A stretch of DNA of 39,006 nucleotides from a virus (IMGVR_UViG_3300025659_000312); one strand, 5' to 3'. Counted from the first letter of the stretch, positions 9,480 to 13,670 are shown. Notes: generated by a model not told the origin, from the sequence alone. Made by a program: numbers and translations.

Positions 9480-10388
9480 TTAAAAGTAGGCGTCACCACC
9501 TCTATCTGAAATCCATTTGTTGATGTCTTTGGGTTCATTTGTTATTTCTATTTTATTGCCAAACATCTTTTTAGCTTTTTCTATTTCTTTTCTTTTTTGT
9601 TTACCTTCAGTTGAATTATAGTCATCTTCAAATACTTCGTCGTCATAGTAATACATATCTTCTATATACCCCAATACATCCACTACCATAATTTTGTCAA
9701 CCACTAATTCGTTCCACCACCAATCACCTGTAAATGGGTGTGGTTCTCCGAAATGTTTATTTAATTGTTTTTGATGTGTCTTTATTACTTTGACAACACC
9801 CTTCTCATATAAATTGAATACTTTTTTCACTCCCCTTTTATCTAACGTATTTCCATCTTTATCTTCTAAGTGACTAAACAGGCCGTGTACATTTCTTTTA
9901 TATTTTAACTTTAACTTGCGTATAATGTCATCAAAAATAAAAGTCATCTTTCCTTTTATTTTATCACCTATTTTACTATCTGATGCTTTATTTAATAAAT
10001 AAGTCAATGACGATGAAAATTGTGGTTCAGTTGATACCCACCTCATTCCAGTTTCATCTGGTCGAGACATTATATCATCGGAAGAAGCTATTTTCAATTT
10101 ACCTATCATATGGACAAGAAACCCACCATCGGTTCTAATTCCACTTAGATTTCCTATATTACTTTGAGAAGTTGTAGTAAATGTTGAAAGTGCCTTTGAT
10201 GTACCTTGAAGTTTTTTTAGATTTACCAATCCTTTAAAATCCGTTACATGAAATGTTGGAATATCTACATCACCTACAATTACATCTACCACTTTTTTTG
10301 ATAATGGAATCATAGTAGAATCCATCATATTTAGTTGAGAGTCTTCCCAAGATATTACTTCATATAATAAATCTTTTAATTTAATCAT
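9480..10388 (-). CDS. Hypothetical protein with MIKLKDLLYE leader, possibly ART-fold
   Basis: 302 aa; FHVTD...LSTFT...WNELVV is weakly ART-like. Confidence 0.75.
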   Translation of the reverse strand: MIKLKDLLYEVISWEDSQLNMMDSTMIPLSKKVVDVIVGDVDIPTFHVTDFKGLVNLKKLQGTSKALSTFTTTSQSNIGNLSGIRTDGGFLVHMIGKLKIASSDDIMSRPDETGMRWVSTEPQFSSSLTYLLNKASDSKIGDKIKGKMTFIFDDIIRKLKLKYKRNVHGLFSHLEDKDGNTLDKRGVKKVFNLYEKGVVKVIKTHQKQLNKHFGEPHPFTGDWWWNELVVDKIMVVDVLGYIEDMYYYDDEVFEDDYNSTEGKQKRKEIEKAKKMFGNKIEITNEPKDINKWISDRGGDAYF

Positions 10389-10391
10389 AAT

Positions 10392-10712
10392 TTATCTCGG
10401 TGGGTTATAATCCCACGGTCCCCAATGTTCGTGTTTTAACATATTTATCATTGTTTCTTCAACTGAATATTTGTGAATCTTTTTACCATTCGCTGGTATT
10501 CCACCTAACTCATAGTATTTCTTTTTATTAAGTATTATTTTTCTATTATTACTGAAATCTAATACCATCCCACCTTTCTCAATCCAACAATGACCGAATG
10601 GTTTGCCATTAGTGGATAGTATCGCAAGACCATGACACAATACTAAATCTTTATCGTGTCCTTTACTAACAAATCTACCGTTAGCTTCGTAGCAATCACC
10701 TTTACCTGCCAC
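10392..10712 (-). CDS. Small transglutaminase- or papain-like Cys-His-Asp protein
   Basis: GDCYEAN ... GHCWIE ... VLDFSN; 106 aa, GTG start. Confidence 0.5.
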   Translation of the reverse strand: MAGKGDCYEANGRFVSKGHDKDLVLCHGLAILSTNGKPFGHCWIEKGGMVLDFSNNRKIILNKKKYYELGGIPANGKKIHKYSVEETMINMLKHEHWGPWDYNPPR

Positions 10713-11488
10713 TATCTCTTCTTCAACATTTTTTGTTTTTCAATCCACTTTTTAGCTTGTCTATTCTTAATAGGTGCCTTTATAAATTTACCAATACCTT
10801 TACCGACCAACATATTAAATTTACTTGTTGCTTGTTTTGTACTTAAATGTTTATTATTGTCAACTAATAGGAAATTGGCATTTCCAAATAACCCCTGGAA
10901 ATAAGCCATATTCTTTTGAACTGAATGCCAATATTTTTCAACAACATGAGCTGGTAATCTTCGTGGTCTTTCTTCATTTCGCTGTTGTGCAATTTCCAAT
11001 GAAGTATTTACAAATACCATGAATGTATCATATCCCAATTTCATTAAATCTTGTCGTTCATTCTTTACATCTTTAAATTTATGACCCGTACCATCAATAA
11101 TAACACCCAATCTACCTTCTGTATAATTTTTTAGTCGTTGTTTACTTAATGCTTTTGTACGAGTTCTCATACCACTGTAATCATCGTATTCTGGGTCAGT
11201 AAGTTGTTTGAATAACTCTTCTGGCATATTGTCAATGTCGACAGTTCCAAAATATTTTTTCATAAATTTTTCTAATTCAGTATCTTGATTAACCATTTTT
11301 AATCCGGTATAGGATACGCTAACTTTTTTGGGTATTCCGAATAATTGAGATGCAACGTAGGTTTTGCCTGAATTGTGGACATTAACTTCTGATTTTCCCA
11401 CATAATAATTATGATTATTATTTATTCGTAAATCATATACATATTTTTTATCATATTTTATTAGCTTAATTGATTTAATTTTCACCAT
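10712..11488 (-). CDS. Split-intein C-part (39 aa) fused to the C-terminal extein of a P-loop kinase (AAA_33 or zeta-toxin-like)
   Basis: MVKIKSIKLIKYDKKYVYDLRINNNHNYYVGKSEVNVHN|SGKT...VIIDGTG...FMVFVNTSLEIAQQRNEERPRRLP. Confidence 0.92.
   Translation of the reverse strand: MVKIKSIKLIKYDKKYVYDLRINNNHNYYVGKSEVNVHNSGKTYVASQLFGIPKKVSVSYTGLKMVNQDTELEKFMKKYFGTVDIDNMPEELFKQLTDPEYDDYSGMRTRTKALSKQRLKNYTEGRLGVIIDGTGHKFKDVKNERQDLMKLGYDTFMVFVNTSLEIAQQRNEERPRRLPAHVVEKYWHSVQKNMAYFQGLFGNANFLLVDNNKHLSTKQATSKFNMLVGKGIGKFIKAPIKNRQAKKWIEKQKMLKKR
11372..11488 (-). mobile_element. IntC of naturally split intein
   Basis: Block F VYDLRINNNHNYYV; block G HN followed by +1 Ser; own ATG with GGAG upstream. Confidence 0.92.
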
Positions 11489-11741
11489 ATTCTCCGTGAT
11501 TTTTAATAAATCTAATATTTTGTTTTTCTGACCAAAATATTTCTTTATTTTTTAATAGTGATTTTATATTTACCATTGATATATGACAATAATCACCATC
11601 CCATTTTTTACGTGAATTAACATAGCTACAGTAACGTCTATTATTAAATTTAAAATTACACCTATCACATTTATATGATATACTTTGACCTGTATGTGGG
11701 TTTCCTGTTTTAGTATAAATTAAATCAGTTGCTAATAACAT
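11475..11741 (-). CDS. 88 aa Cys-rich ORF between the intein halves (possible homing endonuclease remnant)
   Basis: YKCDRCNFKF...YCSY...YCH; overlaps the IntN stop by 10 nt and the IntC start by 14 nt. Confidence 0.55.
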   Translation of the reverse strand: MLLATDLIYTKTGNPHTGQSISYKCDRCNFKFNNRRYCSYVNSRKKWDGDYCHISMVNIKSLLKNKEIFWSEKQNIRFIKNHGEYGEN

Positions 11742-12103
11742 AATACGTCATCACCATCTTTCAAATCCTTTGCCATAATCCAGTTACCATTCGATAGTCT
11801 TATTTCATGATCTAATGTACAAACAACAGTTTCACCAGTTTCCAATTCTATATTTACCATTTCAGTATCAGCATCGTACTTAAAAAGTTCAACTACTTCT
11901 GAAATTTCTGATTTACCTTTTGTGTTCAATGTCCAAACTCTTTCACCTTTAATTACTTCAGATATTTTAGTATATCCAGTTTCAGTTTTTATTAATGTAT
12001 TTTCATCGAAGCAACCTGGACCACCGGCAAGGAATACCGCTTTGAATATGCCTGGATCATTTACTCCCTCGTTTAATTGTATAAGATCTTTTAATTTAAT
12101 CAT
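11732..12103 (-). CDS. N-terminal extein of P-loop kinase (30 aa) fused to split-intein N-part (93 aa)
   Basis: MIKLKDLIQLNEGVNDPGIFKAVFLAGGPG|CFDENTLIKTETG...VCTLDHEI...WIMAKDLKDGDDVLCY*. Confidence 0.92.
   Translation of the reverse strand: MIKLKDLIQLNEGVNDPGIFKAVFLAGGPGCFDENTLIKTETGYTKISEVIKGERVWTLNTKGKSEISEVVELFKYDADTEMVNIELETGETVVCTLDHEIRLSNGNWIMAKDLKDGDDVLCY
11735..12013 (-). mobile_element. IntN of naturally split intein
   Basis: Block A starts with Cys1 (codon 12011-12013); block B TxxH (TLDH). Confidence 0.92.
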
Positions 12104-12144
12104 TGTCCTTGTCCTTATTCATAAAAAATATATTATCCATCAAC

Positions 12145-12153
12145 TATAAATAT
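12145..12153 (-). promoter_or_regulatory. Intergenic ATATTTATA motif (candidate promoter)
   Basis: About 42 nt upstream of the kinase-IntN start, at the boundary of blocks A and B. Confidence 0.4.
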
Positions 12154-12179
12154 AAGAGAATGGAAAAGTTAGATATTAT

Positions 12180-13670
12180 TTAGAATACTTTGACATCGTA
12201 TTTTTTAGAAAACTGGAAGCCGTCCTGTTTAGTATTTACTATTGGATGCCCTTTTATGTTTAGACTTGTGTTTAAAACCATAGGACAACCTGTTTTCTCA
12301 TAAAACTCTTTAATAAGTTTATAATAACCTGGATTATCTTCTTTACTGACTGTTTGAACTCTGGAAGTATTATCCACGTGACATATTGCCGGATACTTAT
12401 CTGGCCACTTACACTTTGCAGTGAATTGCATAAATTGGGATTTACGAACTGGCATATCAAAAATTTCATGAGCATGTTCTTCCAATACTGATGGGGCGAA
12501 TGGTCTAAATTTTTGTCGATGCTTTATAACATTTACTTTATCTTTTATATCATCACCTCTTGGGTCTGCTAATAAACTTCTATTTCCAAGTGCTCGTGGA
12601 CCAAACTCAGCTCGTCCATTTGCCACCCCTACTATGTTTCCTTTAAGTAGTTCATTTAATACTTTTTTAACTGGATATTTTCCATCTATGTTATGTCCTG
12701 TGAATGGAGTCTCCCAATTTATATGTTTTCCATAAACATATGCCGCAGAACCGAGTGATGAACCAGCATCACCAGGATTTGGTAATATCCATAAGTCAGG
12801 ATAGTAATCACGGGCTATAATAGAGTTAGCTACACAATTCAGTGCAACTCCCCCCATATAAACACAATTATTAGTTTCAGGAACAAGTTTTTGAGTGAGA
12901 CTGAATACCTTACGGATTTCTTCTTCGCATATCCATTGGACATTTGCTGCTATATTAAACTTCCAATCATCACTATCATCATCTGGGTAGTATTCTGGAT
13001 TCCAATCTAAACAACCTCTATGTAAATTGTTCTTTAAATCAATCGGTTTATCGGAGTCATTAAAGAAATCTTCACGAATACTATTCTTTAGTTTGTGGTC
13101 TTGTGTTCCCCAACCTGCCATTCCCATTAAGATGTATTCATCTTCTTGTGGTTTTAATCCAAGTCGTTGTGTCATTGCACTATACCAAAGACCAAGTGAG
13201 TTTGGATATTTTAGTGTATATCGCTTCTCAAAATGACTTCCCCACGCATACCAAATACTACACGTCTCAAACTCACCTATTGCATCTATAACTACGATAG
13301 CTGATTCTTCATATGGACTTGTGTAGTATCCCGCCGCAGCGTGAGATTGGTGATGTTGAACATATTCTATTTCTACATTACCAACGTAATCTCGTAGATA
13401 ATAAGAAGGTAAATTTTTACGAGATAAAACCTCTCCATATTGACCTGCTCTTAGTTGTCTTAACTTTTTTAAGTATGGTCTTTCAAAATATACTACCTTG
13501 TCTGGTTTACCACCAAGTCTATAACAATCGGCAAATAATGTGCTATTCAAATCTGAATCATTCTTGATTCCACTATATCTTTCACTGTGACCGGCAAACA
13601 AAATCTCACCGTCTTGTATAAGTGTAACCGCTGCATCATGATTTAATGCATTTATTCCTAATATTTTCAT
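12180..13670 (-). CDS. Carbamoyltransferase (NodU/CmcH/TobZ family)
   Basis: ILGINALNHDAA, HHQSHAAA, VVIDAIGE, MGMAGWG, GGVALNC, PGDAG, EFGPRALGNRS, FRPFAP, HVDNTSRVQTV, LNTSLN. Confidence 0.95.
   Translation of the reverse strand: MKILGINALNHDAAVTLIQDGEILFAGHSERYSGIKNDSDLNSTLFADCYRLGGKPDKVVYFERPYLKKLRQLRAGQYGEVLSRKNLPSYYLRDYVGNVEIEYVQHHQSHAAAGYYTSPYEESAIVVIDAIGEFETCSIWYAWGSHFEKRYTLKYPNSLGLWYSAMTQRLGLKPQEDEYILMGMAGWGTQDHKLKNSIREDFFNDSDKPIDLKNNLHRGCLDWNPEYYPDDDSDDWKFNIAANVQWICEEEIRKVFSLTQKLVPETNNCVYMGGVALNCVANSIIARDYYPDLWILPNPGDAGSSLGSAAYVYGKHINWETPFTGHNIDGKYPVKKVLNELLKGNIVGVANGRAEFGPRALGNRSLLADPRGDDIKDKVNVIKHRQKFRPFAPSVLEEHAHEIFDMPVRKSQFMQFTAKCKWPDKYPAICHVDNTSRVQTVSKEDNPGYYKLIKEFYEKTGCPMVLNTSLNIKGHPIVNTKQDGFQFSKKYDVKVF

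Follow-up and report, generated by a model that had tools for sequence, protein, structure and literature searches.

The window, by which we mean the whole stretch of 39,006 nucleotides analysed here, is a fragment of a large uncultured marine phage (IMGVR_UViG_3300025659_000312) rich in glycan-building genes. Between positions 10712 and 12103 it contains a kinase gene broken by a split intein, whose halves lie in separate ORFs on one strand with a third ORF in between (Table 1). This third ORF shares 10 nt with the end of gene 1 and 14 nt with the start of gene 2, both halves have good ribosome-binding sites and open frames, and the three co-oriented ORFs (N-extein-IntN, endonuclease remnant and IntC-C-extein) are probably translationally coupled. 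The promoter scan was at background (17 promoter-like sites vs 14.1 +/- 3.6 expected) and the terminator scan found none. A reading of the sequence alone had already proposed this anatomy, i.e. a 30-aa extein ending GGPG followed by a 93-aa IntN with Cys1, TxxH and a stop, and a 39-aa IntC followed by an extein starting SGKT; ORFs and translations agree with it in every element, including the HN end of IntC. The charges that it had counted by hand were returned identically by a script, IntN being acidic (20 D/E vs 10 K/R, net -10) and IntC basic (3 D/E vs 8 K/R, net +5). Its description of a fractured layout of two genes was right about the split and the phage-type arrangement but not about the number of genes, as the remnant of an endonuclease lies between them.

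Table 1 Features of the fractured kinase locus in the window
Feature	Position	Strand	Description
Gene 1	12103..11732	(-)	123 aa: 30-aa N-extein, Cys at position 31, 93-aa IntN
N-extein	12014..12103	(-)	30 codons; kinase start, beta-1 strand and first half of Walker A; ends GGPG
IntN	11732..12013	(-)	93 codons + stop; Cys1 (block A), TLDH (block B); ends LCY
88-aa ORF	11475..11741	(-)	Remnant of a free-standing TnsA-like PD-(D/E)XK endonuclease, putatively a homing enzyme
Gene 2	11488..10712	(-)	258 aa: 39-aa IntC, then 219-aa C-extein starting SGKT
IntC	11372..11488	(-)	39 codons; blocks F + G; ends HN; own ATG, GGAG 5 nt upstream
C-extein	10712..11371	(-)	219 codons + stop; Ser+1 then GKT; remaining AAA_33/PNK-like P-loop kinase

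Uninterrupted homologues of the kinase, 220-222 aa long, are found in Pelagibacter phage HTVC008M (AGE60463) and Methylophilales phage Melnitz (QZI94401). Since both read GGPGSGK[TS] straight through, alignment places the intein exactly, between residues 4 and 5 of the Walker A motif (GGPG^SGKT), the insertion point and rebuilt junction that the sequence-only reading had proposed. Excision of the intein would restore the host sequence exactly, GGPG and SGKT together giving the GGPGSGK[TS] of the intact homologues P0001, P0002 and P0006, to whose N-termini the N-extein aligns. A search of 5.8 billion proteins gave 2,786 homologues of gene 2, most of the listed matches being 246-247 aa long; all those examined were uninterrupted, and the longer ones have terminal extensions and not inteins. 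Joined by script, the exteins make 249 aa, precisely the length that had been predicted for an AAA_33 or zeta-like kinase, and the C-half matches PF13671 (AAA_33) above its cutoff (28.7 vs 27) and phrog_12810 at 5e-29. The protein is named "predicted kinase" in the sources, and it resembles polynucleotide kinase PHROGs and L-seryl-tRNA(Sec) kinase only weakly. Walker A is complete only across the extein junction and neither half alone has a complete nucleotide-binding loop; the activity of this phage kinase would come to depend, as the gene is written, on the association of two polypeptides. Among cultured phages, a distant blastn search gave only short extein matches, to the HTVC008M and Melnitz phages, and megablast of 20 kb gave no match.

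The search with intein HMMs suggested in the sequence-only reading gave both ends of the element above cutoff, TIGR01445 (intein_Nterm) on the N-half with 37.1 (cutoff 24.5) and TIGR01443 (intein_Cterm) on IntC with 17.5 (cutoff 15.6). Hint-type families of Pfam match IntN, and Intein_splicing scored 35.3 on the N-half alone, just below its cutoff of 35.8. All the features of a class 1 intein are present, namely Cys1, TxxH, the terminal His-Asn and Ser at +1. Furthermore, four split N-halves (99, 75, 65 and 57% identity) end with an identical LCY, and the matching C-halves were found downstream of them. The break lies at the identical point in L003, L005, L006, L017 and L022, and Cys1, TLDH, HN and Ser+1 are invariant in the four split alleles of the window, L003, L005 and L006.

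In L005/L022 (positions 538-1407 of L005) and L006 a gene of 289 aa lies between the intein halves, where the window has its 88-aa ORF, and it likewise shares 10 nt with the end of gene 1. Residues 1-53 of the 88-aa protein match residues 1-55 of the intact protein (P0150, 289 aa) and residues 48-85 match residues 248-285. Because only these two regions of P0150 are matched, the small ORF is, by alignment, an in-frame deletion of about 198 residues of a 289-aa endonuclease. The intact versions P0149 and P0150 match the TnsA-like family PF08722 (32.2 and 33.4 vs cutoff 26.5) and at full length combine a zinc ribbon (CxxC...CxxC) at the N-terminus with the motif NPMYG and an E...PD...ExK core of the classical type, the E, PD and ExK columns being nearly invariant in the alignment of the family, which comprises 1,872 representative clusters at E<=1e-3. 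The free-standing endonuclease is thus intact in L005, L006 and L022, while the window ORF is a remnant that lacks this core (approximately residues 56-253 are deleted) and the fourth Cys of the zinc ribbon. A Vsr-like (EDxHD) family was considered for P0149, but no Vsr or I-Bth0305I chain appeared among its PDB matches and Pfam gives TnsA-like; the endonuclease is neither GIY-YIG nor Vsr-like, PF08722 being found instead. The PDB sequence search with the endonuclease gave no meaningful match, the best nuclease match of P0149, a weak one, being T7 endonuclease I, and tblastn of the intact endonuclease found none in cultured phages. Distant members of the family with zinc ribbon, NPMYG and PD-ExK core (L025:2501-3349, L026:2501-3415 and L027:1224-2147) are free-standing among phage genes, their neighbours including a thymidylate synthase and a thymidylate-kinase-like gene.

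As the 88-aa remnant is a deleted form of an intact endonuclease, the locus can be classed with the fractured genes of Dassa et al. 2009, at an advanced stage of endonuclease decay. A free-standing Zn-ribbon/PD-(D/E)XK homing endonuclease would once have mobilised the element, and the window copy would no longer be mobile because the 198-residue in-frame deletion took away the nuclease core.

To evaluate selection on the intein, dN/dS was computed over IntN and IntC together (Nei-Gojobori) and was 0.11-0.36 in 15 of 15 pairs, with dS of 0.7-2.8. It was far below 1 in intein and extein alike, with alleles down to 41-57% identity, and in 13 of the 15 pairs the intein was more conserved than the extein (71% vs 53% between the window and L005). 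At the codon level the intein halves are under purifying selection. In addition, the complex between gene 1 and residues 1-60 of gene 2 was modelled with an ipSAE of 0.75, against 0.01 for the best of 3 controls, a pass that may reflect likeness to solved complexes because split-intein complexes have already been solved. The ipSAE mark of the model is reached by 58 of 80 solved complexes and by 2 of 110 mismatched pairs; its three runs share at least 85% of the contacts and the pLDDT of the partner is at least 64. The model supports a predicted association of IntN with IntC. Altogether we consider it very probable that this is a functional fractured gene, in which a class-1 split intein joins the P-loop kinase by predicted trans-splicing. 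The acidic IntN and the basic IntC would associate into a HINT fold, and this would trans-splice the exteins into a 249-aa kinase with an intact P-loop.

The split itself could in principle come from assembly or sequencing, for example if a false stop or a frameshift had been introduced into a contiguous intein, and contiguous alleles of the same intein do occur in other phages. However, 100% of the sampled words of the 1,392-nt stretch were found in DNA runs from at least 11 studies, and 90-100% of them in 6 metatranscriptome (RNA-library) runs, whose contigs show the presence of the locus and not its transcription. Positions 10600-12200 are covered by contigs of two DNA and two RNA-library runs with 0 substitutions and 0 indels, the four independent runs being identical over the whole stretch. 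Moreover, what parts the halves is an ORF of 267 nt that belongs to a different gene and lies in another frame, and not a single stop. The sequence-only reading had named a continuous ORF in the reads as what would speak against it; the contigs from the four runs show no difference and the stop codons of the split are real. An artefact has a negligible probability and is already effectively refuted.

Two other explanations accept the split and deny the splicing. One is that the kinase is a pseudogene, a dead gene in decay since a mobile element invaded it, as might be suspected from an endonuclease already decayed by deletion and from the rarity of the allele, most relatives being without intein. 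Yet both halves are open with good ribosome-binding sites, dN/dS is far below 1 in intein and extein, and the identical sequence recurs across many independent samples, so that we hold this to be very improbable. Only slightly less improbable is that the halves no longer splice, and serve as non-covalent dimerisation domains holding the kinase pieces together, or that the protein works as two chains. Here there is a precedent in a fractured phage enzyme known to assemble non-covalently (PMC3045599), and a fossil in which Cys1, the block-B His, the penultimate His and Ser+1 have all been replaced keeps two open ORFs (L007). Because this relative retains the two-ORF layout after losing every splicing residue, an open frame alone is no guarantee of splicing. 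Against the loss of splicing in the window stands the invariance of all catalytic residues in the window, L003, L005 and L006, and a P-loop broken by 132 residues is unlikely to bind NTP unligated.

The fossil, at L007:1437-2587 on a GC-richer IMG/VR contig, derives from the same fractured kinase and has a Walker A without GK[ST]. Its two ORFs, of 139 and 243 aa, have remained open and overlap at ATGA; the locus may encode a two-chain protein that does not splice, or be a gene in decay.

Returning to the intein of the window, its alleles form two clades. In clade 1, which uses the standard code, the halves are separated by the intact endonuclease in L005/L022 and L006 and by the 88-aa remnant in the window. 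In clade 2, in which TGA is read as Trp, L017 has the split form with the endonuclease, on a contig that is cut, the split form of L003/L004 retains a 28-codon vestige beginning with the first 11 codons of the endonuclease, and L018/L019 and L020/L021 have contiguous mini-inteins of 136-137 aa at the same site. The invariant Trp of the intein is a TGA codon throughout clade 2, and several Trp positions of the exteins are likewise TGA in L003, L004 and L017-L021; the recoded clade includes every contiguous and every vestige-bearing allele.

The linker of the contiguous forms, of 5-6 residues (YTKNN / YTKNS), matches codons 11-15 of the L017 endonuclease at the DNA level, L020 agreeing at 14 of 15 nt and L018 at 19 of 23 nt. 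These values were reached by only 20 and 1 of 20,000 shuffles, respectively, and by 0 of 130 background windows. The endonuclease frame would be put into the frame of IntN by exactly such a loss as 23 or 26 nt (each 2 mod 3), and the endonuclease N-terminal residues involved are a feature of the family in non-intein contexts too. As the linker matches endonuclease codons, re-fusion of a split form is favoured. We therefore lean, by a small degree, towards a full and partly reversible life cycle that the alleles would document, from the empty site through the intact endonuclease, the 88-aa remnant and the 28-codon vestige to re-fused contiguous mini-inteins. The series could also run in the opposite direction, with an endonuclease invading a mini-intein (step II of Dassa), which takes the same number of events as re-fusion. 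In the IntN tree only the split into two clades is supported (98/89), and the tree topology cannot settle the direction between split and contiguous forms because the order within the TGA=W clade is not resolved. If re-fusion is true, an intein split in nature can heal and splice in cis again, which is a step missing from the published model of gene breaking.

The arrangement is a known one, of which the locus is a new case. The fractured genes of Dassa et al. 2009 (gp41-1, gp41-8, NrdJ-1, NrdA-2 and IMPDH-1; PMC2677866) are likewise phage genes broken at a conserved motif by a split intein, with N-extein-IntN, an endonuclease gene and IntC-C-extein on one strand, the 3' end of the endonuclease overlapping the downstream start, an IntN of 88-105 aa, an IntC of 33-54 aa and oppositely charged halves (PMC2677866). 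The gp41-7 locus, without endonuclease, is a described precedent for its loss (PMC2677866). In several respects the window differs from these loci. Its host is a small P-loop kinase, whereas theirs are eight replication or nucleotide-metabolism enzymes; its endonuclease combines a zinc ribbon with a classical PD-(D/E)XK core (TnsA-like, PF08722), whereas theirs are GIY-YIG or Vsr-like; and the endonuclease ORF overlaps the end of IntN, where the published loci have a spacer of 27-51 nt (PMC2677866). Unlike in those loci, the endonuclease of the window is an 88-aa deletion remnant.

The best solved match of a contiguous allele (P0154) is the gp41-1 intein (PDB 6QAZ/6RIZ), with E=3.8e-10 over the whole intein but an identity of only ~30% in the alignment. 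Both inteins are split at a homologous position, IntN ending ..C-L-Y in gp41-1 and ..L-C-Y here, and they share the IntC start M-x-[LI]-K-[KS]-I, the pair Cys1 and Ser+1 and an origin in aquatic phages. The polarity of the charges is reversed, the N-half being positive and the C-half negative in gp41-1 (PMC2677866), whereas here IntN is acidic and IntC basic. The IntN of the window alone is closest, among solved structures, to NrdJ-1 (E=1.7e-4), with gp41-1 at E=0.08. Because it is only distantly related to gp41-1 and NrdJ-1, the window pair is, judged from sequence, a reasonable candidate for an additional orthogonal split-intein pair. For protein engineering it offers a natural split intein of compact size (93 + 39 aa, Cys1/Ser+1) whose halves are strongly opposite in charge, accompanied by a comparison set of at least four diverged split alleles and two natural contiguous versions (P0153 and P0154) predicted to splice in cis.

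About 70% of inteins sit in ATP-binding proteins (PMC4760082, PMC5050341). The classic P-loop inteins presented there (DnaB-b, MCM-a, RFC-S-a and TerL1-a) occupy, like the one in the window, the Walker A loop of a P-loop NTPase. The classic site, as given for TerL1-a in PMC5050341, is GK^T, between the invariant Lys and Thr/Ser, whereas the window intein lies three residues upstream, at G^SGKT, and uses the P-loop Ser as its +1 nucleophile. The small-kinase host class is absent from the tables of these surveys (PMC4760082, PMC5050341). The sequence-only reading had suspected that the host family was undescribed among split-intein sites, and it was indeed not found in Dassa 2009, in the top-15 and mobilome tables (Tables 1-3) of Novikova 2016 or in Pinto 2020; a literature search combining the host family with intein found no paper either, both searches covering publications. 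The novelty of the site class is more limited, since P-loop NTPases are favoured intein hosts (PMC4760082) and a site of this class is expected, so that the surprise is modest. What the locus adds to the fractured-gene phenomenon is the small-kinase host class, the non-classic insertion point in the P-loop and a third endonuclease family. It is of value for a split-intein pair that is likely to be new and for an unusually complete series of decay and repair, a testable case for the decay of the endonuclease and the re-joining of a broken gene.

Related inteins were also seen in other settings. In a different kinase-like host, which measures ~280 aa once the intein is discounted, P0307 and P0314 have contiguous mini-inteins at GGAG^SGKG that share 35-41% identity with the present family. 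In P0309 (267 aa) a contiguous mini-intein at G^SGK is followed three residues later by a second Cys-start IntN that runs to the end of the protein; this would be two inteins in one P-loop, the second one split. Fractured genes of DnaE (Pol III alpha) were found through intein similarity at L023:1394-3064 and L024:2-4826, the latter with a long ORF between the DnaE halves that by eye has a Vsr-like (EDxHD-type) motif, as in Dassa 2009.

Positions 12180-39006 of the window are occupied by a long co-oriented run of glycan-building genes, including a carbamoyltransferase, three GT7-LamG glycosyltransferases, radical SAM enzymes and a cytidylyltransferase. The contigs covering the locus carry further copies of the 18 nt with which gene 1 opens (12086-12103, coding MIKLKD), and the ORF at 9480-10388 and the N-terminal extensions of the homologues P0005, P0024 and P0125 begin with the same ten residues.
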